A stretch of DNA of 64,000 nucleotides from assembly GCA_964351315.1 (NCBI GenBank), contig CAYGNH010000014.1:3280-67279 (forward strand), given 5' to 3'. The notes under the pieces were generated by a model, which did not search any database, was not told the origin of the DNA, and was given only the letters and a program-made list of their open reading frames with translations. The DNA comes from an uncultured Pseudobdellovibrionaceae bacterium. GTDB lineage: Bacteria > Bdellovibrionota > Bdellovibrionia > Bdellovibrionales > JAGQZY01. The stretch's first letter is position 1, and the number at the start of each line of letters is the position of its first letter. Below, one piece after another: positions 41,502 through 63,958 of this stretch. A program made the translations under genes and the position numbers.

Positions 41502-42174
41502 TAGGTTTCTCCTTGAGTAATATTTGTATTTTAAGCTTTTTACGTTCAATGACAATGAGCTGTGAAAACAAGTAAGGGCTGTAAGAAGTAAGATGACCAA
41601 AAACTAAACAGTTTGGTCGGTGCCGAGTAGACTCATTCCGTGTGTTTCTCTCACATTACCAATGGTTGTCCCCTCAGATGACAAGATCTATGTCCTAGTC
41701 GTAAACAACTGAGATTATTCCAAAAAAAATCGAGTTTTTGGCGATTAAACGCGCTAGCCCTGACCACCTAAGCAATCTTGGAGTTGTAGCCAATCTCCCA
41801 GTCGTTGTAATCTCCCCATTAAAAACTAGAAAGACTAATCACAATTAAAGAGGGTGACAATTCTATTTAGAAGTTAAGGGGTGACAGTTTTACTTGAATT
41901 CATCAATTCCTCCTCCAAACCGGCTTTTTGCCGATAATTTATATTATGTTGCATACAGCTTGTATCATACTGAAACTAGCCATGTTTTTAAATTAAAAAT
42001 ATTGAGTTCTCTTCGTCTGAAATCAGATTTTAAAAAAATGGAGCCACCCCAGGCGACTCTCGTCGACCGCCACCACCAAAACGTGTTTCACTTTATTCTT
42101 TTTTACAGAGTCACTGAATTTCAATGATTTTGCCGACACAGAGGGACTATAAAAAACTCATTCTGGAGATGTTT

Positions 42175-49562: not shown

Positions 49563-50384
49563 CTACAACTTTTGACAACTCGGACACCAAAAACTATTTC
49601 TCCCGACGATAGCTCGGCTGCGAATCGCGGCACCACAAAACCGACAAGCCTCGCGGTCTCGCCCATAGACGAGTAGCAGATTTTGAAAGTACCCTTTGGA
49701 ACCACCCGCCTGGGTAAAATCGCTGATTGTGGTCCCCCCGCAGGCGATGGCTTCGCCAAGAACCTGTTGAATAGCCTGCACTAGGCGATCGCAGTCCCGA
49801 CGGCTGACACGGTGACAAGACTTGTTGGGATGGATCCCGGCAAGATACAAAGCCTCGCTGGCGTAAATGTTACCGACCCCGACTACAACACTTTGATTCA
49901 TGATTAAAGACTTTATGCTAGTTTTGCGAAGTCGACATTTCGTAAAAAGGTAGTCGCCGGTAAAAGTTAAGTCTTGCAGGGGCTCTGGCCCCAAACTTTT
50001 CAAATGGGAGTGAGTGGCCAGCTCCGCTTTTTTGAAAACCAAAAACATCCCGAAACGTCGAGGATCATGGTAGGTTAAGACTCTTTGTTCATCCAAAAAT
50101 ATTTGAACGTGATCATGCTTGCGCGCATCAGTCTGCAACCGCCAACTTCCGGTCATACCTAAGTGTGACAAGATGTAAAACTGATCGGTCTCTAAAAGCA
50201 GGTATTTCGCCCGACGGTGAATGGCTAAAATAGATTCACCTTCTACTTTGCGAATGACTTGCAAAGGACTGATATATCTTAACTTTTTGTCGCTCAACTG
50301 AATCTTATTGATGCGCTCGCCGGGAAGCCGGAGCAACTCCTCTAGACCTCGTCGAACGGTCTCAACCTCAGGTAGTTCTGGCAT
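49563..50384 (-). CDS. mutM: Formamidopyrimidine-DNA glycosylase
   Basis: MPELPEVE, HLGMTG, DPRRFG, GVGNIYASE, C-terminal CRFC...CPSCQ zinc finger. Confidence 0.97.
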   Translation of the reverse strand: MPELPEVETVRRGLEELLRLPGERINKIQLSDKKLRYISPLQVIRKVEGESILAIHRRAKYLLLETDQFYILSHLGMTGSWRLQTDARKHDHVQIFLDEQRVLTYHDPRRFGMFLVFKKAELATHSHLKSLGPEPLQDLTFTGDYLFTKCRLRKTSIKSLIMNQSVVVGVGNIYASEALYLAGIHPNKSCHRVSRRDCDRLVQAIQQVLGEAIACGGTTISDFTQAGGSKGYFQNLLLVYGRDREACRFCGAAIRSRAIVGRNSFWCPSCQKL

Positions 50385-50707
50385 ATGGACTCCAACCTCT
50401 TGTTTTTACTCAGTTTATTTTTCACATTTTGAACAAATGCCAACTCAGGCCAACATTTCAGCCGTTTTTAACATTTTTAGCTTTAAAAAGCGAAATGACA
50501 TTCTCAGCACTGGGGTCCACTTGCTGCTCACGAATGTACTCCATCACGCGCTCAGAAACCTCTTTCTGGTCGTCCTCATCGCATATTGAATTTACCTGTA
50601 TTTCTCAAATCAAAAAAACTATTCAAGTTGCCATCGACTACTTCCGCTCACTTTAACCGGAGACTTAATCACTTTCATCAATGACAGATGGTAATGGAAG
50701 TCACTCC

Positions 50708-50842
50708 GTGGCTAGGAAAAATTAGAGGGCTTAAAAAGTATACCTGCCCCCTTCCCTGCTAAAAAAGGGCCTCCCCAATCGGGCCGAAGGCCCTTTATTC
50801 AATTTTGTTTAAGGTTTTATGTGACGAATTCTTTTATAAACA
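50708..50842. repeat. 135-bp non-coding direct repeat, copy 1 of 4
   Basis: GTGGCTAGGAAAAATTAGAGGG...AAAGGGCCT-loop-AGGCCCTTT...GAATTCTTTTATAAACA; C5 allele. Confidence 0.97.
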
Positions 50843-51378
50843 CAATTGGACCCGAATCCTGAATTGACCTTCTTTTTCAAAATTGTGCTGAAGTTGGACT
50901 TCAAAAAAACATACCCCCTCACTTATAGGGAAAAATATACGACAAATACGCGACAAAATTATGGTGAAAAATGAGCAAACCCTTCTCACTATAGGGGTAA
51001 ATGGGCGGCCTACTGGGCGGCCATTTCTCATGTAACCCACTAAAATCAATGCGAAATATTTTTCTGGAGAATTTTCTTCAATTTTTTTTAATTTTTTTTT
51101 CAGAGCCCCAAAAAAAACAAATTTCGGGCTCAATTTTAGAGCTCAAAATTTAATTTGGATGGTAAGGAAGGCAATCATGCTTGCTTGAATAAACTCCCAG
51201 TTCAATCATAAAACTAGGGAGTTTTTTAAATGGCCAACTGGTCTTGTCATGGGCGAGGGTGCCGAAAAATTTTTTTGTTTTCAATAACGTTAATGGCTCT
51301 AACTAATATTTTTGTCATATTCCGAGGCTTACAACTTAAGGCATAGCTGCAAGAGCTAGTCGGTCTCAAAATAGGGTT

Positions 51379-51825
51379 CTAAAGAATACGTTCATTAACG
51401 ATCAACTGAAAAAAATCACTGTCCGTTTCAATCTCGAAAGTTTTTGACTCGTTAATATCAGCTTTACAGCTTTCTGCATTAACAGAAAAATCTATCAAAA
51501 AGACTGAGCTTTTCGCAGCTTGCCTAATTTTTCCGGGTACATAATACGTAACGACTCGGTAAGGATCACCGATGTATCCGGATCTAGTATTGACTCTATC
51601 TTTGTCCTCAATAAATATAGCATAGTTTTCAAAGTCATAGAGATCGCTGTTTTTAACTTCTCCTACAAAGTAGCTGATAGCATCATTTTTTCTTGAAAGA
51701 TCATTAGACTTAGAATTGACTATTTCTTCGATTGCTCTAGTTACTGCAGATTGAAAGTCACAATCTGCAAAAGAATGAAAGGGCACCAAGGTGGCAAAAG
51801 CCAGTATCGCAATCTTCAACGTCAT
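51379..51825 (-). CDS. Exported hypothetical protein (cargo block 1)
   Basis: ATG 51825 after GGAG; signal ending HSFA. Confidence 0.65.
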   Translation of the reverse strand: MTLKIAILAFATLVPFHSFADCDFQSAVTRAIEEIVNSKSNDLSRKNDAISYFVGEVKNSDLYDFENYAIFIEDKDRVNTRSGYIGDPYRVVTYYVPGKIRQAAKSSVFLIDFSVNAESCKADINESKTFEIETDSDFFQLIVNERIL

Positions 51826-51975
51826 CAAACTACTCCATATTTTGATATCTGAATCGAGGTATAGCAAAAAAGAGGCATGTTCTACTGAAAACCTATTCAA
51901 TGAAAAAAAGACACAATTTTTGGCACTTAACTTTCTATTTCATGACAAATCAAAAATTTGTAATTATTTCCTGTA

Positions 51976-52110
51976 GTGGCTAGGAAAAATTAGAGGGCTT
52001 AAAAAGTATACCTGCCCCCTTCCCTGCTAAAAAAGGGCCTCCCCAATCGGGCCGAAGGCCCTTTATTCAATTTTGTTTAAGGTTTTATGTTACGAATTCT
52101 TTTATAAACA
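51976..52110. repeat. 135-bp direct repeat, copy 2 of 4
   Basis: Identical to copy 1 except TTATGTTACG for TTATGTGACG. Confidence 0.97.
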
Positions 52111-52112
52111 CA

Positions 52113-52376
52113 GCAAGGATTCTTAAAACTTTTTGTGAAGGCATTGGGATCACGCCGGTTAAGTTCCATGATCTCAGGGCTACGCTCATTACCCAGATGA
52201 TGCGAAATGGTGTAGCACTCGCTAAGGTCATGGCCATCGTGGGTCATTCAGAGCTTAAAACCACTCAAGGCTATTTAAGACTTTGCGGCCAGGACGTGGT
52301 CGGGGCTACTGACTCTTTAGGAATTAAGCTTCCTGAGGACGTGGAACGAGGCAAAATCCTTAACTTTAACAGTTAA
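52113..52376 (+). pseudogene. C-terminal 87 codons of a tyrosine recombinase, truncated at repeat copy 2
   Basis: Manual translation ARILKTFCEGIGITPVKFHDLRATLITQMMRNGVALAKVMAIVGHSELKTTQGY: HxLR, GH and catalytic Tyr; no start codon. Confidence 0.85.
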
Positions 52377-52443
52377 AAAATAGGGTTACTTTTGGTCACT
52401 TGGATTTGTTTTTCTTCAAGAAAATGAGCCGGTTAGGATCTAA

Positions 52444-52459
52444 CCCATCACCCGCTCCA
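52444..52459 (+). other. tRNA-Gly 3'-end fragment, probable att site
   Basis: CCCATCACCCGCTCCA matches a tRNA-Gly acceptor end, 67 bp after the integrase stop; no full cloverleaf upstream. Confidence 0.65.
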
Positions 52460-52566
52460 CTTTTCCTCCTACAATTTTGGTCTGTCAGAGTCGTGCAGAG
52501 TGAAAAAATGCCACGCCTTGTGGCTTTTATTTGAGAAACCCTAGAAGTTAGATTATTCATCGCGTT

Positions 52567-53370
52567 ATGGGCGCAAGCAAGCAGCACACACCAGTGAAAA
52601 ATCTTAGCGAAGAAAGCCTGCAGGTTTTTTATGACTTTGCAATATGGTTACAACATGAGTTCACTTCTAGGTGTAAACGGAACCCCCAGTATTCACTTCG
52701 CTCATTTGCACGCTTTTTAGAAATTGACCCATCGACTCTATCCCAATACATCTCGAAAAAGAGGAATGCTTCAGTAAAAATGAAGGTCAAACTTGCAAAA
52801 CGTATTGGTGCTTCACAGGCTCAAATTAATATTTTTGCCAACAAAACAGAGATCGATGAAGCGGCTGCCAAATTTCAGCTTATTGAACTCGACAAATTTC
52901 ACTTTATTTCTGACTGGTATCATATTGCAATTTTAGAGCTTTCTTGCACAGAGGATTTCAACCCAAACTTAAATAACATCTCCCGCAGACTTGGTATTAC
53001 GGTTGATGAGGCCCGTGCGGCTATTGATCGACTCTTAAGATTAGGCCTAATGAAACGACACGAACAAAAACTTCTAAAAGTAGAAAAAGACATCACTAAT
53101 TTTTCTCCTGGCCAGTCCTCAAAAGCTCACAAACACTACCAAAGGCAGATAATGGAAAAAGGCCTAAAAGCTATTGATGAATGTCCTCAAAAATTAAAAG
53201 ATATCACTTCAATGTCTATGGCTATAGACATCGCAAAGCTTCCTGAAGCGAGAAAGCATATCCATAACTTTAGAAAAAAAATGTGTCTTCTGCTTGAGCA
53301 AGGTCAACAGACAGAGGTCTACAACTTATCCATACAACTTATTCCGATAACAAAACAGGTTGAATCATGA
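52567..53370 (+). CDS. TIGR02147/DUF4423-family HTH protein
   Basis: RCKRNPQYSLRSFARFLEI, ISDWYHIAILEL, EVYNLSIQLIP. Confidence 0.85.
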   Translation: MGASKQHTPVKNLSEESLQVFYDFAIWLQHEFTSRCKRNPQYSLRSFARFLEIDPSTLSQYISKKRNASVKMKVKLAKRIGASQAQINIFANKTEIDEAAAKFQLIELDKFHFISDWYHIAILELSCTEDFNPNLNNISRRLGITVDEARAAIDRLLRLGLMKRHEQKLLKVEKDITNFSPGQSSKAHKHYQRQIMEKGLKAIDECPQKLKDITSMSMAIDIAKLPEARKHIHNFRKKMCLLLEQGQQTEVYNLSIQLIPITKQVES

Positions 53371-54932
53371 AGAAGTTATTAGGGATTTTATTATGTTCAG
53401 CCGTCTTATTCACCGCAGGCTGCAATAGCGACCCGACCGGAGGCAAGGGTCCAACCGATGAAATAAGTCGGACCAATCCCACATCCGAGTCCAAGCCGAA
53501 CTCTCAACCTGATTCTTTTACTCTTGAAGGAACAGACACTGGAGGTGGTGGTGATCCAATAATACAAGATGTTTATCGGGTTATAGAGAATATTATTTTT
53601 GAACTGGAACAAATTGAATCTTCAGATCCTGAAGCTTTTAGCATGCTTAACAAATTTTTAGGCTTGCACTCAACAATCAGCATTGAAGTCTACAACCACC
53701 TCAAACTCAATGGCAAAGATATTGGCGCCATCAACTACCCCAGAACTGGGTTGATTCAAATCAATCGAGATAGATGGAATAATATTTCATCTGAGCTTGG
53801 AAAAACCTCGTTTGTACTCCACGAGCTAATGGGGCTTGCGTCAATCATCGACCCCAAAGACTACTCACTATCAAATCGATGGGGAAAGGTACTCTTTCGA
53901 GGAGTTCCAGAGGTTTGCAGGCGCTCAGATCAGATTGTCATGAGTTTGCAAAATATCTTTGAAAAAGAATGCTCTGAAATAACTCTGGAAAATCTATTGG
54001 AGCTTAAGTCACTCAAAATCGAAAACATCGGATCCTCTTGGGTCGAGATCGATTCTGAAATGAGTGATGAGGAAGCTTATGCGCACGAACTCACTTTAAA
54101 TTATAATTTAAAAAAATATGAAAAACCCGAATTGCTTTGGAATTTAAGACATGATGACCTGTTAGGCCTCGATAATTTAGAGGACCTTGATTTAAGTGAA
54201 ACCCAATTGGTTAACTTTGATTTAAGTTCATTCGCAAACCTTAGAAATCTCCGCAGATTGAACTTGTCGGAAAACTTTTTAACTTTTTTGCCTGAAAACT
54301 TTTTAAGTGGCTTGGAGGAATTAGAGTATTTAAATTTAGCATCAAATAGACTTGAGGGCTTGACACAACCTGTAGCCGATAAACTGCCAAACCTGAAATC
54401 ACTGTTGCTATCTTCAAACAAAACTCTATTTCGAATAGACCCGATCTTTTTTGAATCCATGGTAGGCCTAAAGTTATTAGCGATGGATGATCTCGATTCA
54501 TTAGAGAATATTGCCAACAATACCTTTCTCCCCTTGGCTTCCCTTCGGTTTCTGCACCTCAATAATTTTACAGGGTTTCTTCACGAAAACAGTTTTTCTG
54601 GCCTTAACAATCTCGAAGAACTGTTTATAACAAACTGGTGGCTAGATCCAAGAATCAAGAAATTACCATGGCAAACCAACCGTGACCACATGGATGCTAT
54701 TAATGAGTTTTACCTATCCTACAAAATACCACCCAATCTATTTACCCCGCTTGAATCATTAATTCGCCTATCCTTGTACAGGAGTGATGAGTGGCTTTTT
54801 AAAACAGATGAACCAGACTTTCTAAAAGAAATGCTCCGCGAAAATACCAACCTACAAGTGGTCTGTTTGCCATCAAGAAACCCGAATTCATTGACTGGGT
54901 GTCAAAACCTTTTGGATCAATCGGTAAGATAG
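53367..54932 (+). CDS. Leucine-rich-repeat lipoprotein with N-terminal GGGGD/LHE domain
   Basis: Lipobox TAGC; TGGGGD, AINYP, VLHELMG; repeated LxxLxLSxNxL units. Confidence 0.8.
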   Translation: MKKLLGILLCSAVLFTAGCNSDPTGGKGPTDEISRTNPTSESKPNSQPDSFTLEGTDTGGGGDPIIQDVYRVIENIIFELEQIESSDPEAFSMLNKFLGLHSTISIEVYNHLKLNGKDIGAINYPRTGLIQINRDRWNNISSELGKTSFVLHELMGLASIIDPKDYSLSNRWGKVLFRGVPEVCRRSDQIVMSLQNIFEKECSEITLENLLELKSLKIENIGSSWVEIDSEMSDEEAYAHELTLNYNLKKYEKPELLWNLRHDDLLGLDNLEDLDLSETQLVNFDLSSFANLRNLRRLNLSENFLTFLPENFLSGLEELEYLNLASNRLEGLTQPVADKLPNLKSLLLSSNKTLFRIDPIFFESMVGLKLLAMDDLDSLENIANNTFLPLASLRFLHLNNFTGFLHENSFSGLNNLEELFITNWWLDPRIKKLPWQTNRDHMDAINEFYLSYKIPPNLFTPLESLIRLSLYRSDEWLFKTDEPDFLKEMLRENTNLQVVCLPSRNPNSLTGCQNLLDQSVR

Positions 54933-55079
54933 TTCATATCATAAAGAAAATTTTCGGTAAAAGATTCGCGTGGCATGTTTTTGCCACACTTTATTGGCCT
55001 TTTAATGCTTACAAGTTGACCAAATTTGCCTTCAAGCCCTATCCCTAGTCTAAGTTTTTACCTTTATGGAGGATAAACA

Positions 55080-55715
55080 ATGAAGTCACTTAGCTTTTTT
55101 TCAATTTTTTTACTCCTACTCAGTGCGACCGCCAAAGCTGGAGTGCATAAATCTGATCAGGAACTCTTTCCGAACTGGATGAGTACACCCGTAGAAAGAA
55201 AATGCAAACCTCGTTTCGAAAATGAAGACACTTTGGTGCATTTAAACTTTGTTAGTCATCAATTTAATAACCCTGTTGATGTTCGCTATAATAGATTCCT
55301 TTTTCCAGATTTGAAAACTTGTGAAGACACCTTAAACCCATCGGTAAAACTGGATGTTGACGGAACAGGGTTAACTTGCGGTTTTTTTGCAAATCACAAC
55401 GGAGTTTACAAGTATCGTTGGGGGATCATATCGACTCGCGGAATTGGAGCTGGCGAAACAGCCAATCGATTTGAGAGCAAGGCAGAATGCGAAAACATAC
55501 TGCGCAACCCTGTCATTGCAAACAAAAGAGTCTGGTTCTGTACGAAGTTCAACGCTTCCTTTGCGATCGCAACTATTAATGCCAGTTATTTCCCGGTTGG
55601 CGTGAATATCTACAGCACGCTACCGAAATATAAAAATAAGTCAGACTGTGAAATAGAAATGATTAAGCTGAAAAATAAGTGCGAACAAAACCCTAATTTT
55701 TTCAAGTGTAAATAA
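55080..55715 (+). CDS. Exported cysteine-rich hypothetical protein
   Basis: Signal ending AKA; recurring F/Y-x-x-K-x-x-CE units; GGAGG RBS. Confidence 0.7.
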   Translation: MKSLSFFSIFLLLLSATAKAGVHKSDQELFPNWMSTPVERKCKPRFENEDTLVHLNFVSHQFNNPVDVRYNRFLFPDLKTCEDTLNPSVKLDVDGTGLTCGFFANHNGVYKYRWGIISTRGIGAGETANRFESKAECENILRNPVIANKRVWFCTKFNASFAIATINASYFPVGVNIYSTLPKYKNKSDCEIEMIKLKNKCEQNPNFFKCK

Positions 55716-55729
55716 CAATGGAGAATACA

Positions 55730-56989
55730 ATGAAATCGATACTCGTTTTTTCACTAATGCTCGCCACACCTCTATTGGCTGTCCAACCTGGATACACCCA
55801 ACCAACATTAAGACAAGCAACTTATGTCGGGACAGCACATTCTTTCACCCACAGACCAACAACATCACAAAAAAAAGGATTTTCGTCGAACTATTTCAAA
55901 CTCATTGAAGTTAATGGGACCAGTGACGGCTATAGCTTTTCGACTATAGACAGCAAGTTTTTGCGGCTACCGATTTTAAACTATTTTGGTGGAAGCTTTA
56001 TAATTTTAAAAGATGTCGACTGCTCTAAACAGAATAGTGTATTTGATTGCGGTGCAAGCTTTGTCAGCAACACTAGAAATGTGGAAGAGAAAAAGTTTGA
56101 AGAAACAGTGGCAATGTTGGCTCATGATGGAAGGATCTCTACTGATGATATTGCCATTTTCAATGAATGGCTGAAGCTACACATACAAATGGACCAAGCT
56201 GGGTACAATCAGTCAAAGACTTTAATGTGCTTTGACCGACATCCCGTATCCAAGAGTTCAGCATCTTCTACATTCGGAACAAGCTCTAAATCATCAGCTC
56301 ACGAGAGGGTTTGTTTATGGGCCTCTCAATCGGAAGTTCAAACTATAGAAAAAGCTTTCGGTAAGGGTCAAGATCCGACAAATTATGTGCTGGATGGAAT
56401 AAACTACTCTTCAGTGCAATCGAATGATCCACTTTATCTTTTCATGGATTCACACTCGATAGGAGGCGCTTACCCCTGGGATGACCCCAATGAACAAACG
56501 AGATCTCATTACTCTGAAATTAAGGGGCAAGATGATCAATATTTAGGGGCTTTGGTTTTGCGGATTAACAGAACAAAGCAAATAGTAGAACCTCACTTTG
56601 AGGTGACGCCTGATAGCTATAAACGAATACCGGTTTTTATGCCTTTCGATGCCATTGGGTTGCTCGACAGTCTTCGAGCCCTCAACAAAATCCCTTACGA
56701 GAATCAAGTGACTAGCGCGAAAGCCAAAAGTCTTTTGAAATTTGATTCTTGGGAGACTCATGCCCAATTGGTAGATCAAGCCTTTGACAACTTTGAGTCG
56801 TACATCCTCTCTGGCAGTCCGATGTACATCCGAATGAACGCAGAATCTGATGTGCCATTATTTAACGAATTAGTCATTCCAAGCCTCTCACTCCCAGGCC
56901 CATATAAAGAAATCCTGATTCAGTGTAATAGCCCAGACGTCAAATTTAGATACGGAAGGCGATTTTGCCCAATTGAGGTAATGAAGTAA
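55730..56989 (+). CDS. Exported hypothetical protein
   Basis: ATG 55730 after GGAG; signal MKSILVFSLMLATPLLA. Confidence 0.7.
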   Translation: MKSILVFSLMLATPLLAVQPGYTQPTLRQATYVGTAHSFTHRPTTSQKKGFSSNYFKLIEVNGTSDGYSFSTIDSKFLRLPILNYFGGSFIILKDVDCSKQNSVFDCGASFVSNTRNVEEKKFEETVAMLAHDGRISTDDIAIFNEWLKLHIQMDQAGYNQSKTLMCFDRHPVSKSSASSTFGTSSKSSAHERVCLWASQSEVQTIEKAFGKGQDPTNYVLDGINYSSVQSNDPLYLFMDSHSIGGAYPWDDPNEQTRSHYSEIKGQDDQYLGALVLRINRTKQIVEPHFEVTPDSYKRIPVFMPFDAIGLLDSLRALNKIPYENQVTSAKAKSLLKFDSWETHAQLVDQAFDNFESYILSGSPMYIRMNAESDVPLFNELVIPSLSLPGPYKEILIQCNSPDVKFRYGRRFCPIEVMK

Positions 56990-57013
56990 ACAAATCTGGA
57001 GAAAGGCGGGGTC

Positions 57014-57166
57014 TTATGGATCAATATAGACCCAACGGCCTTCACTGAGAATCCAGTTACCACCGTAGAGATCAAAATACCTTGCGGTGCCTCTTTCTAA
57101 CAACTGCTGGCCCCTTTCATCATTGCGGAGCCAACGAATAAACATGGGTCTAACACCATTGTACTC
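57014..57166 (-). pseudogene. Possible 3' fragment of a gene cut by repeat copy 3
   Basis: 50 open codons EYNGVRPMFIRWLR...GRWVYIDP* starting at the repeat boundary; no family recognised. Confidence 0.3.
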
Positions 57167-57167
57167 C

Positions 57168-57301
57168 GTGGCTAGGAAAAATTAGAGGGCTTAAAAAGTA
57201 TACCTGCCCCTTCCCTGCTAAAAAAGGGCCTCCCCAATCGGGCCGAAGGCCCTTTATTCAATTTTGTTTAAGGTTTTATGTGACGAATTCTTTTATAAAC
57301 A
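57168..57301. repeat. 134-bp direct repeat, copy 3 of 4
   Basis: Same as copy 1 with one C fewer in the C-run. Confidence 0.97.
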
Positions 57302-57691
57302 CATAAAGTCACTAAAAGAGCAAAAGCCACTTAAGTTCACAATAACATTACATGCAGATGAAAAAGAGCAGTTCATTAAACACTTACTAGAGTAGACTCT
57401 AAACTTGTAACCTAGACTTTTCGAGATGGTCCGCACTTCCTTATATGAAAGTGTGGCTCACGTTATTCTATAAGCTAAGGTTCAGGCACAACCTGAGAAG
57501 TTGAGCCAATTAATCAGATTGCCAGCTTTGAGTTGAATGAAATTTTAAACTGATTAAATGGCCAATATTCCGTCATATCGACTCAATGGATGCATCTGAC
57601 TGATTTTTTTAAAAAATATCTAATTAAAGTACAGGGAATAGTAAATTAGCCCTACCTCTATTTTATATTGATTCTTTAAAATTAAAAAAAA

Positions 57692-58192
57692 TTAATTAGA
57701 TACGAGATTTTCATCAATAGCTGCTGCATTATTCTCAAGATACTGAGCTTGATTTCCATTCAGTTCATTGATTAACGAGTCTATTGAAGCTCGACAATCT
57801 GACCGATCGATTGTAACTAAAGAATGAACATTACCTGATCTAAATAACCCGATTTGAGTTTGTGTCATGAAGAAATGGGAATTACTGCTGACCTGACTTC
57901 GGTTTAAGTTAAAAGCATGCATAACTGCTTGATTGTAAGTTTCAGCATGGGAGTTCCTTAAAGCATTCAAAATTTCTAAGTGACAAAACCTGTCACGCGA
58001 ATTTCTATGGATGACTGTTGAAATAATTCTTGGTCTATTACACACGCCGGTTTCAAAATCTTGAATTCCATTTCCAATTTCTGCTTGTCCACCTAAAAAA
58101 CAGGTGACAACATTGGTTCCATTTCCAGAGTCTGCATGTGAATTTGAAGCGACTATGAAAATGAAAGCTCCAAATAATAATAATTTACTCAT
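57692..58192 (-). CDS. Exported hypothetical protein (cargo block 3)
   Basis: AGGAG RBS; signal ending SHA, then DSGNG...VVTC. Confidence 0.7.
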   Translation of the reverse strand: MSKLLLFGAFIFIVASNSHADSGNGTNVVTCFLGGQAEIGNGIQDFETGVCNRPRIISTVIHRNSRDRFCHLEILNALRNSHAETYNQAVMHAFNLNRSQVSSNSHFFMTQTQIGLFRSGNVHSLVTIDRSDCRASIDSLINELNGNQAQYLENNAAAIDENLVSN

Positions 58193-58222
58193 TTTAGGTC
58201 TCCTTGGTATAATATAATGAAG

Positions 58223-58238
58223 AGCAAGAAATATGCCT
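58223..58238 (-). promoter_or_regulatory. Candidate sigma-54 promoter
   Basis: Minus strand AGGCATATTTCTTGCT (GG-N10-GC with TTGC), 30 bp upstream of ATG 58192. Confidence 0.5.
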
Positions 58239-58676
58239 ACTATAGCGCGTCTAATGATTTGTTGATTACAAACACGTGTTTAACTTTTTAACAGTCGTAT
58301 TCCTCATTCAAAATATATAATTTTTCAGCGATTTCTTCCGGTTATAGCTTTTCAGGGAAAACGACTGCTTTTGTGTTCTAAATTGACGGTTTCTCACTGA
58401 ATTCGCATCAAGGAAGGGCAAGATTGGAGCCACACTCTATTTCGAGATCCTTAGTTCTAATAAGGAAAGTAACGTGTGTACTGTCAGGTTCAATTCGCCT
58501 ACTCAGACCTAAGGGCATAACTGGGAGATGTGGGCCCAACTCCAAGATATGGCCATTTGACCTGATTCCAGTAATTTAGATGAATTCATCAGTTTCACAA
58601 TGCCTAAAACCTTTAAATAGTTAGTCCTATATATAGAGGCGGCAATAGAGCCCCTCATTTGATCCACGGAGGGATT

Positions 58677-58882
58677 ATGAAAGATATCAATATAAAGGGT
58701 ACTACTGACGAAAAAGCTGTTGGCACGCATGTTCACTGCGATAGTGCTGAAGACCTGATTTACGAGTTTTTAAAAGACAGGAGCCCATTAACGGCAAGAG
58801 GCTATCAAAAAGACCTAAAGAAGTTTTTTGAGTTCACAAATCATTTTTTTGGACTTCCACAGAAAAAAGAAAAATCATTTCT
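58677..58882 (+). pseudogene. N-terminal fragment of an Xer/phage-type tyrosine recombinase, truncated at repeat copy 4
   Basis: GGAGGG RBS and ATG; LIYEFLKDRSPLTARGYQKDLKKFFEF resembles the integrase N-terminal SAM-like domain; frame runs into the repeat. Confidence 0.65.
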
Positions 58883-59016
58883 GTGGCTAGGAAAAATTAG
58901 AGGGCTTAAAAAGTATACCTGCCCCTTCCCTGCTAAAAAAGGGCCTCCCCAATCGGGCCGAAGGCCCTTTATTCAATTTTGTTTAAGGTTTTATGTGACG
59001 AATTCTTTTATAAACA
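58883..59016. repeat. 134-bp direct repeat, copy 4 of 4
   Basis: Identical to copy 3 through TATAAACA. Confidence 0.97.
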
Positions 59017-59219: not shown

Positions 59220-59839
59220 GATGACTTTACCTGTTTTTTGCTGATCTCTTGTGGCTTTATATTTCTTAATGATGAGGCCATTCATGTCCATAATCCGGTA
59301 AATCCTCTTTCTATTAAGGGTCTTAAGCTCAAGGCTTTTTCTGTCATTCTTGATTTTCCTTTGTGATGTATTGAACTGCGACTGACTTTTAGCTCATCGC
59401 AAACAGTGATCTTGCTTATTTTTTCTTCTTCAAGCGTCCCAATGGCCTCTTCGGCAAGCTCAACTTTTTTTTGAGTTGATCGCGGTTTAGAATATCATTT
59501 GTACAGTCTAAAATTCTTTTTCGTACAGCAAGGTCATTGACTGTTTCTTTTAAAGCTTAGTTCTCATTTTGAGTCGATCATTTTCTCTTAAGACCTCATC
59601 AATATTCTATCGTCTGGCTTTTTCATTTTTTTCCGTAAAGTTCTTTTCCAAGAATAGATCGTTACAGGGTGAATATCATGAATCCGAGCCAGATCCGATA
59701 ACGACTTAGATCCTGCACTGGTTTCACGTAAAATTTCCATTTTTTTGGCCTTTGAAAAGGTCCTCCTTCTTCGTTTTTGGGTGGTTTCCACCGTTTCCTC
59801 CTGATTTGGAGGTGTCTAAACTAAATGGGGGGACAAACA
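59220..59839 (-). mobile_element. 5' half of a decayed IS3-family (IS2-like) element
   Basis: IRL TGTTTGTCCCCCCATTTAGTTTAGACA starting at 59839; OrfA RRRRTFSKAKKMEIL...LARIHDIHPVTIYSWKR; OrfB pieces NRKRIYRIM and KTGKVI; frameshifts. Confidence 0.85.
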
Positions 59840-59840
59840 T

Positions 59841-60378
59841 TAAGTACCTTTTTTCAAACACCAGGTGGTGTTGTGATGGTTTAGAAATCAAATGTTAGAA
59901 CAATGAAAAAGTTTTCGTTGCCATTACTTTGGATTGCCATGACCGCGAGTGCATAGGATTTGTGAACTCTAAAGAGCCACTTCAAGCCACGCATATTCAA
60001 GACTTGATGGTAATGTCGGTTGAAAAGCGTTTTAAAGAATTAAAGACGCCACGAGAAATCCATTTTTAAGCTAAAGAGGATCTATTTACAGAGCCAAAGA
60101 AACCATAGCTATAGGCAGGTCCCTTGGCCTTAAAAGTTGCTTCACGGCTGCTTATAGCCCACAGTCTAACAGCACGTCAGAGGCTTTTGTGAACACTTTG
60201 AAACGCGATTATGTTTACACAAACGAATGCTTTGATGCAGAGACCGTTATGAAAATGCTTCCAGGATGGATTGAGGATTATAACAACATCGGACCGCACT
60301 CGGGCCTTGGCATGCGAAGCCCACAAGAGTATATCAATTTAGATAACCAAGCTGTCTAAAACTTTGGGGGCCAAAGCA
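59841..60378 (+). mobile_element. 3' half of a decayed IS2-like element (DDE core and IRR)
   Basis: SNTRWCCDG, LDCHDRE, YSPQSN, EAFVNTLKRDYV, PHSGLGMRSP with stops; IRR TGTCTAAAACTTTGGGGGCCAAAGCA. Confidence 0.85.
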
Positions 60379-60382
60379 AAAA

Positions 60383-60871
60383 CTAATTAATTAATTCAGG
60401 TAATTGCAGGCTTCCAATATTGGAGTAACCAGTGGCATTGTTTGGATCACGTGCGATTGTAAATTGATACTCGCTGAATTCATCTAATCTTAAACCGCCA
60501 TCTTTTGTCAGCGCGCCCCGAACAATTAGTATTATCGTTGCATCACCATTAGAGTCTGTAAAAACTACAGACTTCATAAGATATCCACTGATTTGAAAAA
60601 CATAAGTCTGTTTATCAAAAAAATCAGTACCACCTAGTGTAACTATAATATCATGCTCTTCTAAACCTTTAAGGTTTGCCTTTGAGAGTATTGAAATTGG
60701 ATAAGAGGTAACAGTGTCTTCTTCAGAATAATAAAGGTCAGTAGCGCTGAAGTAATCGATTAAAGTAGGGTCGATTTTTACTACTTGTGTGCTGGCTGTC
60801 ACTTTTTGTGAAGTAGCAAAGACGTTAAAAGAAAATCCACTAAGAATTATAAAAAATAAATATTTGTACAT
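60383..60871 (-). CDS. Exported hypothetical protein
   Basis: Signal ending NVFA; AAGGGG RBS. Confidence 0.7.
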   Translation of the reverse strand: MYKYLFFIILSGFSFNVFATSQKVTASTQVVKIDPTLIDYFSATDLYYSEEDTVTSYPISILSKANLKGLEEHDIIVTLGGTDFFDKQTYVFQISGYLMKSVVFTDSNGDATIILIVRGALTKDGGLRLDEFSEYQFTIARDPNNATGYSNIGSLQLPELIN

Positions 60872-61029
60872 TTTTCCCCTTCTTTAAATTATTGTTTTAT
60901 TCCAACATTTAAATCAATACTTCGTCTACAGAATGATAGAATAATAGGCAACCATAAAAGACTGTGTTGTCATCAGCTTGGCTCATATTCGTGCTAGCTC
61001 ATGTTTTTTTGTGTGAGTTGTGTAAATTT

Positions 61030-61253
61030 TTTGTAGCCCCCATCTAGTTGAGGCACCTCCAAATCTGGAGGAAACAATGGAAACCACTCAATAACTAAGA
61101 AGAAGGACCTTTTCAAAGGCCCAAAAAATGGAAATTTTACAGGAAAACATGAAAAAGCCAGACGATATAAATATTGATGAAGTCTTAAAAGAAAATGGTC
61201 GATTCAAACTTGAGAACTCAGCTTTAAAAGAAACAGTGAGTGACCTTGCTATT
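61030..61253 (+). mobile_element. Second, internally deleted remnant of the same IS2-like left end
   Basis: CACCTCCAAATCTGGAGGAAACAATGGAAACCAC...GGACCTTTTCAAAGGCC...ATGAAAAAGCCAGACGAT aligns by eye to the reverse complement of about 59530-59839. Confidence 0.8.
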
Positions 61254-61391
61254 CCAAACTCTGACTAACCAAGACGGCGTAAAATTTAAAATAGTAAAGA
61301 TAAAATTATAGGCTATTTTTATCTGTTGATTGAGTATAATATTGGCGACAACTTAGTCATTTTGCTTCACGAACTACCTATTAGGATTTTT

Positions 61392-61931
61392 ATGAAAAAT
61401 TACTTAAAAATTTTGAAATTCGCTATTATTCCATTACTCTTTTCTCACTTTGCCTCTGCTGACCTTACAGAAGGTTTAAAATATGATGAAAGAATTGAGC
61501 TTCCAGGTGAAAATGTTGAAGTGATTGCGCAAGTTGTGTTCACTAATATTTCTTTCGACCTTGGAGATCATGAAAACCTCTATCTATATCCTGTGGATGT
61601 AACCGCGAAAGGCTCTCACACCAATCCAGATCCTTTTATACTAATTGAGATGTGTAGAGACCTTACAGACGGTGCAGCTGATTATTACGCAACTTCGGCA
61701 ACATTAAATAGTGGAGAAACAGTTACAATGACAGCGCCAAGGCCTTTTTTACTTTTTGGTGGTTTAAAAATAATATCTTTTAAAAATTCACATCAATGTG
61801 GTCCTTGGGAATCTCAAATTGCTGATTTCCCACGGGGGACTTCGTATATCCGAAATTTAATTTGTATCAAAACAAATCATCGCTTTATGAGAAGACAGTT
61901 GAGCGATCTATATTCTAATGAATGTTATTAA
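61392..61931 (+). CDS. Exported hypothetical protein
   Basis: Signal ending ASA; ATG 61392 after AGGA. Confidence 0.65.
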   Translation: MKNYLKILKFAIIPLLFSHFASADLTEGLKYDERIELPGENVEVIAQVVFTNISFDLGDHENLYLYPVDVTAKGSHTNPDPFILIEMCRDLTDGAADYYATSATLNSGETVTMTAPRPFLLFGGLKIISFKNSHQCGPWESQIADFPRGTSYIRNLICIKTNHRFMRRQLSDLYSNECY

Positions 61932-62136
61932 GGTATCTGGTCGCCTAACATAACTACAATTGACCCTTTATAAGCAAAAGAATCATAACAGCATTGGTAC
62001 AATCTATAGATTGACACTCACTATCTACTTTTTTGATGGCTTTGTTGTAAACTTTTCCTATAATTTTGCAGATCTGTATATTATCTCCAAATTTTGATAT
62101 AGAAGCCAAAGTCTTTAGTTTAAAAAAGGAGGAGAA

Positions 62137-62523
62137 ATGAAATCTCTACTATTAATTTTTGGCACATTGCTTTCAGCGTCAACTTTTGCTGACACAACGA
62201 TGCTTAAATGTGTTGTTGAAACAAGTCAAACTGGTGATGTTGTAACTGAAACAATGTACATAGAAAACGGATATATTTACGCTCCAGTTTTTGGTGGTGA
62301 CGTTGCCGCTGGTTCAGGAGCAGTTCAAGTGACTCGAATGATGGGTGATGACCTTACCTTTACCTTTGAGAAAGATGTCGAAGAAGGCAAAACCATTGTA
62401 GCTCTCACGAAAATTGGACAGACTCTGTCTCTTGGTCAATGGAAGTACGTGGAAAGAATTGTTCTTGACGGAACTCCAGGCTCTTTGAGAGCGGGCTACT
62501 GCACGTCTCAAAAAGTTAACTAA
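62137..62523 (+). CDS. Small exported beta-rich hypothetical protein
   Basis: AGGAGGAG RBS; signal ending STFA; two cysteines near the ends. Confidence 0.75.
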   Translation: MKSLLLIFGTLLSASTFADTTMLKCVVETSQTGDVVTETMYIENGYIYAPVFGGDVAAGSGAVQVTRMMGDDLTFTFEKDVEEGKTIVALTKIGQTLSLGQWKYVERIVLDGTPGSLRAGYCTSQKVN

Positions 62524-62602
62524 ACTTTGTTCCTTCGATAAAATCAGTCACTTCTTAAGCACATGAGGGCTGCCAATTAGAGCAAATAGTTTTAAGGAAA
62601 GT

Positions 62603-63958
62603 ATGAGAAGCTTAAAGTTTTTTTTAGCAATATTCAGCTTCATGATTCTTCAGGAGTCATGGGGAAGTGAACCTAAAGTTATTTATACAATGGGTAATGC
62701 TTCAGGACTTCTCTCTGTAAATGTACCTTTTGATGTCACTGGTAGCTCACCTCGGCTTCTTCAATATAATTATTCGATTGTTAAACCAAGAGTGCCTGTT
62801 GATTCACCAGTGACAATTGTCTGGCTCGGCGGCGGCCCTGCCGAAGCCCTGGTTAACCATCAACAGTTGGTCTCAGAAATGTTTCCTCCAGAGGTACAGG
62901 TTTTATTGGTCGAGTATCGGGGCTTTGGAGTTAACAAACCTATTGCCTCATCTGGACCAGGCAACGAAGTGACAGAGTTTGTTGATAGTGCTTTTAAAGA
63001 TTTTAATTCTGATACAATCACCACTGATGTGATTGAAGTGTTAAAAAGCGAGAAAATTGAGAAATATATTCTTTTTGGACAAAGCTTTGGGACTATAGTA
63101 GCGACAAAACTAGCTGCTTTATCTGAGCAAAATGGATTAAAAAAGCCATTTAGAGTGGTACTGGAGGGAAGTATTGCGAAATCTCCAACACTGGAAGAGG
63201 CTCAAGAAACAGCTAAGTTATTTAATGTTCTCCTAAAGCAACTCGATACTGCTGCTCATAAAGTCTTACAGGATAGTAAATCTTTTGATTATACAAGAGC
63301 TGAATGGGACATACTTTTTAGGTATTTTGTTTTAGCTAATGGCGGGGATTTTGCCGTAGATCAATTTAATACATTGATCCCTTATTTCTATGGGACACTT
63401 GAGCAAATTGAAGCTGGCAAAGCATACGTCGCCCCATTAATTAAGGCAGCAAAGGATGCACTTGGCGAATCGTACAAGGAGTACGGACAGCATGAACAAA
63501 GTTTTGAATCTTTGGCAACATTGGCCCAGAGACAAATTGCTCCAAAAATTTTGCTGTCAGAAATTCGCTATGACTCTGCCGAACTTGTTCTTAGAGATGG
63601 AACTTACTCAGTAGAACAAAATCAATTTGATGAGAGCTTAATTAAACACTTCAATCCATTTGATTCTTCAAAATGGCAAATATCCTCTCCGGTATATTAC
63701 ATACATGGAGAGTTGGATACTGCCACCTATCTTGGTACAGGGAAGAGTCACGCAAACTCTCAGTTTTCCACACCATTTAAGTGTTTTTCTGTGGTTGAAA
63801 ATGTAGGTCATTCACCACTTTCGATGTTGGATAGCTCAATGAAACATCAAGTTTGGCTGAAAGTGATTTCAGGTAAATTGCTCAATGAAGTAATACCAAA
63901 CTCCAAGTTGGACCTATCTACTTCAAGTGAGACTTGTAAGTCTTTACTAGAAAACTAA
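62603..63958 (+). CDS. Exported alpha/beta hydrolase (S33 peptidase-like)
   Basis: WLGGGPA, EYRGFG, GQSFG, HGELD, NVGHS. Confidence 0.8.
   Translation: MRSLKFFLAIFSFMILQESWGSEPKVIYTMGNASGLLSVNVPFDVTGSSPRLLQYNYSIVKPRVPVDSPVTIVWLGGGPAEALVNHQQLVSEMFPPEVQVLLVEYRGFGVNKPIASSGPGNEVTEFVDSAFKDFNSDTITTDVIEVLKSEKIEKYILFGQSFGTIVATKLAALSEQNGLKKPFRVVLEGSIAKSPTLEEAQETAKLFNVLLKQLDTAAHKVLQDSKSFDYTRAEWDILFRYFVLANGGDFAVDQFNTLIPYFYGTLEQIEAGKAYVAPLIKAAKDALGESYKEYGQHEQSFESLATLAQRQIAPKILLSEIRYDSAELVLRDGTYSVEQNQFDESLIKHFNPFDSSKWQISSPVYYIHGELDTATYLGTGKSHANSQFSTPFKCFSVVENVGHSPLSMLDSSMKHQVWLKVISGKLLNEVIPNSKLDLSTSSETCKSLLEN

Follow-up and report, generated by a model that had tools for sequence, protein, structure and literature searches.

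The 64,000-nucleotide stretch of DNA analysed here, hereafter the window, spans positions 3280-67279 of contig C14 in the source genome (G000), that of an uncultured Pseudobdellovibrionaceae bacterium. It contains an array of near-identical copies of a 137-bp repeat, all on the same strand, which separate blocks of unrelated DNA next to mutM, the last core gene before the array. The gene and the four copies that lie within the window are as follows:

49563-50384, minus strand: mutM, formamidopyrimidine-DNA glycosylase (Pfam Fapy_DNA_glyco 114.8 bits, H2TH 95.4 bits)
50708-50844, plus strand: repeat copy 1, 137 bp, with a C5 run (repeat search and alignment)
51976-52112, plus strand: repeat copy 2, with a C5 run and one G-to-T change (repeat search and alignment)
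57168-57303, plus strand: repeat copy 3, with a C4 run (alignment); the sole copy bridged by an independent contig
58883-59016, plus strand: repeat copy 4, with a C4 run and an altered right-end tip (alignment)

The four copies share 98.5-100% identity in alignment and differ in three respects, namely the C5/C4 run, the G/T single-nucleotide polymorphism (SNP) of copy 2 and the last two to three bases of copy 4. A preliminary description of this DNA had placed four same-strand copies at positions that are reproduced here to 1-2 nt, with the unit now measuring 137 bp; its statement that they differ only by one SNP and one C-run indel falls short, since the end of copy 4 is altered as well. A fifth copy lies outside the window at C14:67404-67539 (equivalent to window positions 64125-64260), 125 bp past the window end, and the contig stops after the first 13 nt of a sixth, whose left-flank-to-repeat junction recurs in sequencing runs X1 and X2. 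All six near-identical copies are confined to 17 kb, with none elsewhere in the genome. The blocks between them measure approximately 1131, 5054, 1579 and 5108 bp and share no similarity with one another, in line with the non-homologous blocks of 1133, 5057 and 1581 bp reported before. The array as first described therefore holds, and with copies 5 and 6 it extends further than had been stated. The composition of the cargo is foreign to its surroundings, with a GC content of 0.34-0.43 across the array as against 0.45-0.485 in the adjoining mutM core region.

The genome is a 27-contig draft metagenome assembly obtained from a biofilm with short reads, and an array of this kind could be an artefact in which the copies are real while unrelated flanks have been threaded through a collapsed 137-bp repeat, so that the order or clustering is wrong. 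In four runs, Logan contigs indeed break off some 25-30 nt inside every copy, which is what k=31 would give, two contigs of the assembly end inside copies, and a single copy is bridged. That bridge is a low-coverage contig of run X4 (57024-57369), which spans copy 3 together with the same two flanks and shows no differences from the assembly. Copy-specific variants are preserved in the assembly, and the flank-to-repeat junctions recur in a second sample, X2. Comparable rows in two related genomes (G006 and G010) and on contig C3 were assembled independently and consist of diverged copies, which cannot collapse. Block depth in X1 and X2 is 1.4-1.9 times that of the mutM piece, a weak measure and not a copy number; with depths at or above that of the core in these two samples, the cargo blocks coexist in one genome and are not minority or alternative alleles, as far as so weak a measure goes. 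The orphan gene fragments described below, moreover, exist under any pairing of flanks. Taken together, these observations make it very unlikely that an assembly artefact accounts for the pattern as a whole.

Orthologues of mutM are found in 10 of the 12 other genomes of the genus. In three of these (G008, G003 and G005), mutM stands directly beside orthologues of the genes found at 152.5 kb and downward on contig C6 of the source genome, with one extra gene in between in G008. A fourth relative, G007, carries a different 8-kb insert at the mutM site, and this insert holds a member of the repeat family in the same orientation. By this comparison of gene order, the site beside mutM, where the preliminary description had placed the stacking, is a real insertion hotspot. 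Contigs C14 and C6 both end inside copies, which would be co-oriented if the contigs were joined; such an inferred join suggests that the two form one variable region of at least 46 kb. On the C6 side, some genes resemble housekeeping ones (putative proB, proA and proC of proline synthesis, judged by eye from their first residues), which makes a rearrangement possible instead of a single variable region. The intergenic DNA upstream of mutM gave no alignment with that of the relatives, and no empty site was found for the solitary copy of G007, the sequences being too diverged in both comparisons. An X1 contig tracks the region upstream of mutM to position 50478 and then continues with 14 unlike letters, which may reflect a co-occurring strain with other DNA upstream of mutM. 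A sub-threshold Resolvase match beside the hotspot is actually a SohB-type S49 peptidase.

The repeat family, its rows and its anatomy

The preliminary description had suggested that the genome and its relatives be searched for further copies of the repeat. A covariance model of the family, run on 151 genomes of the order, 13 of them in the genus, identified members in 5 of the 13 genus genomes and in none of the other 138. The source genome contains about 14 copies, and there are 10 matches in G006, 6 in G010, 3 in G007 and 1 in G005. In addition to the array, a profile search of the source genome recovers a diverged member that is 85% identical (C6:164013-164149) and another at a contig end (C6:181545-181642), as well as C24:3749-3886, C11:3897-4027 and three members on C3 (at 285609, 286573 and 293642). 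A half-member at C6:173137-173186 comprises only the left ~50 nt of the unit followed by unrelated sequence; it breaks at the C-rich tract, where the near-identical copies show their C-run indel. A metagenome scan recovered one contig (L031) with one family member. Scans of viral contigs, plasmids and phages did not find any match to the element, and exact-pattern scans of one genome per species found none outside the source genome. The parts of the literature returned by searches on Bdellovibrio repeats and integrons and on miniature or non-autonomous elements contain no description of such an element.

Five clusters have three or more copies, viz., those on contigs C14 (six copies), C3 (three) and C6 (three, one of which is the left half) of the source genome, and those on G006:C338 (five) and G010:C36 (three); there are two further clusters of two copies, G006:C241 among them. 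The row of G006:C338 places five copies on one strand within 11.6 kb, adjoining rpmF. Across three species, 16 of 17 neighbouring pairs are co-oriented, the exception being on G010:C106, and by our own arithmetic, which assumes independent pairs, the chance of this is about 1.4e-4. In the source genome all 14 copies, spread over five contigs, lie on the strand with negative GC skew, a bias to which we give no weight in view of the mixed picture at loci of other species (see below). The copies in the G006 row and on C3 have diverged from one another, and judged by this divergence the rows are not only a recent event. The recent origin previously ascribed to the copies consequently stands for the C14 array and not for the rows of G006 and C3, which are made of diverged copies.

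The ends of the unit are fixed, at GTGGCTAGG on the left and AACACA(G), or ...ACACAG, on the right, and family-wide the unit begins with GTGGCTAGGAA... and ends with ...TTTTATGT.ACGAATTCTTTTATAAACACAG. The same start and end bases are kept in copies that are 15-35% divergent, which marks the repeat as a discrete unit. The interior has four parts, namely an A-tract-rich left box, a C-rich tract, a GC hairpin and a well-conserved AT-rich right box, and the boxes are conserved in sequence and not via structure. Terminal inverted repeats (TIRs) are absent, with only about 3 nt (GTG/CAC) at the two ends being complementary, and even this weak match is lost in the subfamilies of C3 and G006. No target-site duplication (TSD) is present at any of the 12 copies with both flanks readable, solitary diverged copies included, in accord with the lack of flanking direct duplications noted previously. 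The flanks carry no constant motif, and the left-flank tetranucleotides are all different. ARAGORN predicted no genes in the window, Rfam gave no matches at gathering thresholds and the repeat alone gave only chance-level matches (E >= 0.72); a tRNA- or tmRNA-derived attachment (att) repeat was accordingly rejected.

In all four window copies, the GC hairpin and the T-run that follows it are called terminator-like on the plus strand by a terminator scan, and on the minus strand a U6 tail follows the same hairpin stem. The base of the stem is conserved over 10 family members, so that one part of the element has the anatomy of a Rho-independent terminator, which is a description of that part and not of how the element behaves. 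The repeat might therefore be a passive intergenic module, i.e., a two-way terminator with protein-binding boxes that is kept for regulation and serves as portable homology for the exchange of blocks by double crossovers. The conservation of the boxes at the level of sequence and the position of several copies 40-180 bp past a stop codon are compatible with such a role. It leaves unexplained, however, why exact element ends are joined to the interior of five genes (see below), why near-identity in one array exists beside 15-35% divergence elsewhere, and why the copies are co-oriented independently of gene direction, and an essential regulatory part would hardly be limited to 5 of the 13 genomes of a single genus. 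We regard a purely passive module as distinctly unlikely.

Broken genes and cargo

Exact ends of the element abut broken genes in five cases, three of them in contigs other than C14. The two fragments in the window and the stretch that follows the first of them are:

52113-52376, plus strand: orphan C-terminal 87 codons of a P4-type tyrosine integrase (Pfam PF00589, 40.4 bits against a cut-off of 27.1, profile positions 112-167)
52377-52459, plus strand: ~83 bp after the stop of the integrase fragment, with 97% DNA identity to the end of an island on contig C9, after which homology stops
58677-58882, plus strand: orphan N-terminal ~69 codons of an Xer-like tyrosine recombinase (Pfam SAM-like 17.4 bits, below cut-off)

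At the right end of copy 2, the integrase frame opens at the first base past the repeat, from amino acid 260, and the fragment has 95% protein identity to an intact 346-aa integrase (C9:29536-30576). The end of homology at 52459 may be read as an old island boundary. At the left end of copy 4, the Xer-like fragment, whose gene is kept to about amino acid 90, runs directly into the repeat. Six of 200 other genomes of the order have homologues that are 53-69% identical, the one in G022 being full-length at 359 aa, and the remainder of the gene is not found in the assembly of the source genome. The fragments at copies 2 and 4 belong to two different integrase families and are therefore not halves of one gene.

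The third case is on C11. Here the final 35 codons of a dacB-like gene, with a PhoD-like gene after them, adjoin the copy at its right end. As the true orthologue of dacB is found on C3, in synteny conserved with G008, the block on C11 is a second, diverged copy with its start inside the gene. On C24, a small gene with conserved counterparts in 6 of 25 other family genomes has lost at least its last four codons at the left end of the copy. In the fifth case, the left end of a copy on G006:C338 touches another P4-type C-terminal integrase fragment (Pfam 30.3 bits, profile positions 114-168), which begins at amino acid 263 and matches residues 263-336 of the C9 integrase. The P4-type fragments of the two species are thus broken at most three codons apart (Pfam positions 112 and 114), for which we roughly estimate a chance of about 0.02. 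In the three cases that could be tested, the partner half of the broken gene is missing or is present only as a separate intact copy elsewhere. The earlier claim that junctions cut genes is borne out for the integrases to the right of copy 2 and to the left of copy 4, and the idea of fragment capture gains the dacB-like case of C11 and the integrase fragment of G006. It is not supported for the gene suspected to the left of copy 3, where in a six-frame reading, with no homology search made on the stretch, a 423-aa open reading frame (ORF) stops 178 bp before the copy.

Three related readings of these fragments were rejected. Splitting of an integrase gene as in SSV1 or Mx8 does not apply, as the N- and C-terminal fragments are of different families and the middle is absent. 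The Xer-like N-terminal fragment reads in frame through copy 4 with the copy 2 fragment, and the stretch encoded by the repeat is not integrase-like. A GTGGCTAG-like motif in an intergenic region of G003 and in the C9 integrase gene was taken as a chance occurrence, given that the 8-mer is found 55 times in the genome. As a separate observation, the Xer-like integrase is located beside a BrnT/BrnA pair in six genomes of the order (loci L038-L043: G031, G150, G079, G158, G115 and G022). G022 alone has it intact; the other five each show a distinct internal deletion or truncation, and in G079 its frame continues, by eye only, into acetyltransferase-like sequence.

Breakage at exact ends is also what might be expected of a non-autonomous mini-element, akin to MITEs (miniature inverted-repeat transposable elements) but without TIRs and TSDs, that inserts near-randomly, also within genes, and then allows deletion or swapping between co-oriented copies by homologous recombination. 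Such an element would fit the discrete, conserved ends that are seen at numerous unrelated loci (five species and a metagenome contig), and also the genes broken exactly at both kinds of end, and the missing partner halves are the expected product of direct-repeat deletion. For RecA-dependent recombination, 137 bp that are 99% identical amply suffice. However, copy number is low and clustering extreme, with the six near-identical copies restricted to 17 kb, and random insertion does not predict the co-orientation of 16 of 17 pairs. Unequal crossing-over duplicates cargo and would not juxtapose unrelated cargo. No simple insertion with contiguous flanks could be documented, and no transposase family was found that could act in the absence of TIRs, TSDs and a target motif. 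An origin of the rows in a mini-element followed by homologous recombination, the chief competitor of the explanation put forward below, seems somewhat unlikely.

The cargo consists mostly of secreted proteins or lipoproteins that are without family, and also includes a reprolysin-like protein; none of 10 scanned cargo proteins matched a PADLOC defence family. The features annotated in the blocks are listed below:

50845-51975: block 1, with a 173-aa ORF (51379-51900, minus strand) that has a signal-peptide-like start and no Pfam family
52567-53370, plus strand: DUF4423/helix-turn-helix (HTH) protein, block 2
53367-54932, plus strand: leucine-rich-repeat lipoprotein, block 2
55080-55715 and 55718-56989, plus strand: two secreted proteins without family, block 2
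57692-58192, minus strand: 166-aa secreted ORF without family, block 3
59519-61258: degraded remnant of an IS3-family insertion sequence (IS), block 4
59588-59791, minus strand: IS3 OrfA fragment
59857-60063: rve fragment with an internal stop
61326-63958, plus strand: rest of block 4, with ORFs of 201 and 128 aa and a 451-aa alpha/beta-hydrolase-like protein

The IS3 remnant, the sole DDE remnant found in the assembly, has inverted duplications of about 310 bp (59519-59831 and 61037-61258) that are 85-88% identical, carry pieces of OrfA and flank a 162-aa secreted ORF. The DUF4423/HTH gene of block 2 belongs to a family that reaches 12 or more copies per genome and was matched in 153 of 200 other genomes of the order searched, with the closest relatives, 46-48% identical, in other families of the order and not in the same genus. 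Given the size of this paralogous family, its neighbours are uninformative as a guide to the ancestral state.

Comparison with known systems and a possible mechanism

The search for an enzyme covered seven Pfam families (PF00589, PF00239, PF01797, PF04986, PF01548, PF01609 and PF00665), and no intact recombinase or transposase of these families is present on contig C14, which carries just the integrase fragment and the degraded IS3 remnant. The absence of such a gene, first noted for the window, hence extends over the whole contig for the families searched. A missing transposase is weak evidence, as multicopy IS elements are often lost from metagenome bins.

The preliminary description had likened the array to units formed by IS26 or ISCR, that is, to a miniature element moved in trans by a DDE or HUH transposase, with translocatable units that arise by replicative or rolling-circle events and are re-inserted beside another copy. 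IS26 has 14-bp terminal inverted repeats and a DDE transposase of the IS6 family, and ISCR/IS91 elements have a Y2 HUH enzyme and a fixed target tetranucleotide (GTTC/CTTG). In gross anatomy the array does resemble those of IS26, with direct copies, no TSDs, neighbours cut arbitrarily at the exact element end and unrelated segments stacked one after another. Unlike IS26, the element is only 137 bp long and non-coding, has at most about 3 nt of terminal complementarity, none of it conserved family-wide, and is not accompanied by a detectable DDE transposase: the assembly contains no match to DDE_Tnp_1, Y2_Tnp or IS110, and its sole rve match is the dead IS3 remnant, the IS6 family having no model of its own in this search. 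With respect to ISCR/IS91, no GTTC or CTTG flank and no other conserved flanking tetranucleotide is seen; PF04986 had no matches, but as control genomes had none either, that search is uninformative. IS ends are abundant in plasmids, phages and viral contigs, and the lack of element matches there also speaks against this model, which we consider quite improbable. From the earlier interpretation, therefore, the co-oriented copies, the unrelated, low-GC and arbitrarily bounded cargo and the lack of a recombinase in cis are retained, and the named IS analogies, whose defining features are not seen, are not.

Integron arrays and clusters of attC sites lacking integron integrases (CALINs) are similar in that co-oriented repeats of ~60-140 bp part unrelated, mostly promoter-poor accessory genes at one chromosomal site; the repeats may be near-identical within an array, and an adjacent integrase is not required, as in CALINs. 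The blocks described here differ in reaching 5 kb, in containing several genes on both strands and in having gene fragments at their junctions. An attC site has an R'' box (RYYYAAC) at its 5' end and an R' box (GTTRRRY) at its 3' end, which pair in the folded single strand together with L boxes. In agreement with the absence of R''/R' boxes stated in the preliminary description, neither R'' nor R' is found at either end of the repeat on either strand by comparison with the attC consensus, nor is there a long imperfect palindrome or an adjacent IntI, and an integron or CALIN was rejected. On TIGR02249, whose cut-off is 265, the full-length relative of the copy 4 fragment in G022 reaches 49.5 bits.

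MITEs and other small repeats, such as BOX, ERIC, Correia, REP-BIME (repetitive extragenic palindromes and bacterial interspersed mosaic elements) and palindrome-associated transposable elements (PATEs), are likewise small, non-coding, hairpin-bearing and lineage-restricted and have defined ends. The present element differs in being without TIRs, TSDs and a target motif and in occurring in about 14 copies that are clustered and co-oriented. A classical DDE-mobilised MITE was rejected for the lack of conserved TIRs and of TSDs, and an IS200/IS605-derived PATE on account of the variable left tetranucleotides, a single central hairpin and the sole Y1_Tnp match being an unrelated RAYT. The latter, located outside the window (C16:55709-56353), is a 214-aa RAYT-like Y1 transposase situated between an inverted pair of its own REPs in a textbook REPIN-RAYT arrangement, and these REP sequences are unrelated to the 137-bp element.

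Integrative and conjugative elements (ICEs), cis-mobilizable elements (CIMEs) and the tycheposon islands at tRNA genes grow by tandem accretion at one att site. They share with the array a hotspot by a conserved gene, direct repeats between modules, decayed integrases and low-GC cargo. In contrast to them, the repeat is not a tRNA or an Rfam RNA, rows are present at other loci, and integrases are cut at repeat ends and not intact beside them. A module of the Xer/dif type (integrative mobile elements exploiting Xer, or pdif) was rejected, since the best window of the element has 14 mismatches in 28 positions to a dif consensus. The best match to this consensus in the genome is at 41927-41954 (C14:45206), with 7 mismatches in 28 positions and a palindromic centre, 8.8 kb to the left of the array; with the GC skew of C14 keeping one sign, it is probably not the terminus site.

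Based on the fixed ends, co-oriented rows and broken genes, we tentatively propose, as the explanation we lean towards while holding it with reservation, that the 137-bp unit is a recombination-active, att-like element that allows the directional stacking of DNA segments by a recombinase supplied in trans. The unit would represent a genus-restricted family of polar, non-coding att-like sites. A segment with one copy would be added at a resident copy, each time in one and the same direction, and repeated joining would produce rows of alternating element and cargo in the hotspot between mutM and the neighbour that it has in relatives. Such joining is presumed to be enzymatic and to act on element-bearing segments. 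With the enzyme in trans, the only candidates in the assembled genome would be tyrosine recombinases, which include four P4-type integrases as well as XerC/XerD, and P4-type integrases are the sole partner hinted at, their genes being found broken at element ends. Joins of an element end to non-cognate DNA would perhaps account for the gene fragments at junctions. A bolder version, which we deem unlikely, would make this a new cassette-array system that is integron-like but unrelated to integrons, with a short, asymmetric and non-palindromic site and a recombinase encoded elsewhere, possibly a P4-type integrase; it would stack arbitrary DNA, pieces of relatives' genes cut mid-gene included, one way at hotspots, and the recurrent integrase break would be its footprint on a pseudo-site in its own gene.

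Several observations weigh against directional stacking by a recombinase. The assembly has eight PF00589 tyrosine-recombinase matches, none of them beside any row, and the two P4-type fragments touch opposite ends of the element. A core site with inverted binding arms is not recognisable in the element; folding of either strand reveals nothing beyond the hairpin with its 4-5-bp base (z-scores -1.2 and -1.3), and the alignment of 10 family members supports only four pairs with almost no covariation. Cargo genes face both ways relative to the element, unlike those of integron cassettes. At ten loci of other species, the GC-skew strand rule is followed by five and broken by two, with two near zero and one two-stranded. 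Block order is independently verified over one of the five internal copies (copy 3), and copies 1, 2, 4 and 5 rest on the assembly. No excision product, empty site or circle was seen, and no transposition event was observed. Finally, site-specific stacking leaves the first attachment of the element to mid-gene DNA unexplained.

To our knowledge, no bacterial system other than integrons that lines up unrelated genes behind a repeated site is well understood so far, and where integron cassettes come from is itself a standing question. The rows in one direction, together with the genes broken at element ends, suggest an as yet undescribed mode of DNA stacking at a single site on the chromosome, with the caution that bins from short reads are broken, or perhaps joined wrongly, at repeats of this kind. 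Should the arrays instead be the work of a mini-transposon and subsequent deletions, they would still represent an undescribed repeat family without TIRs and TSDs. If directional stacking is true, a second repeat of this sort, unrelated to that of integrons and with both directional rows and joins to mid-gene DNA, would offer a handle on how cargo is first attached to a recombination site, and would bear on how variable gene islands are built in the predatory-type bacteria of this order.

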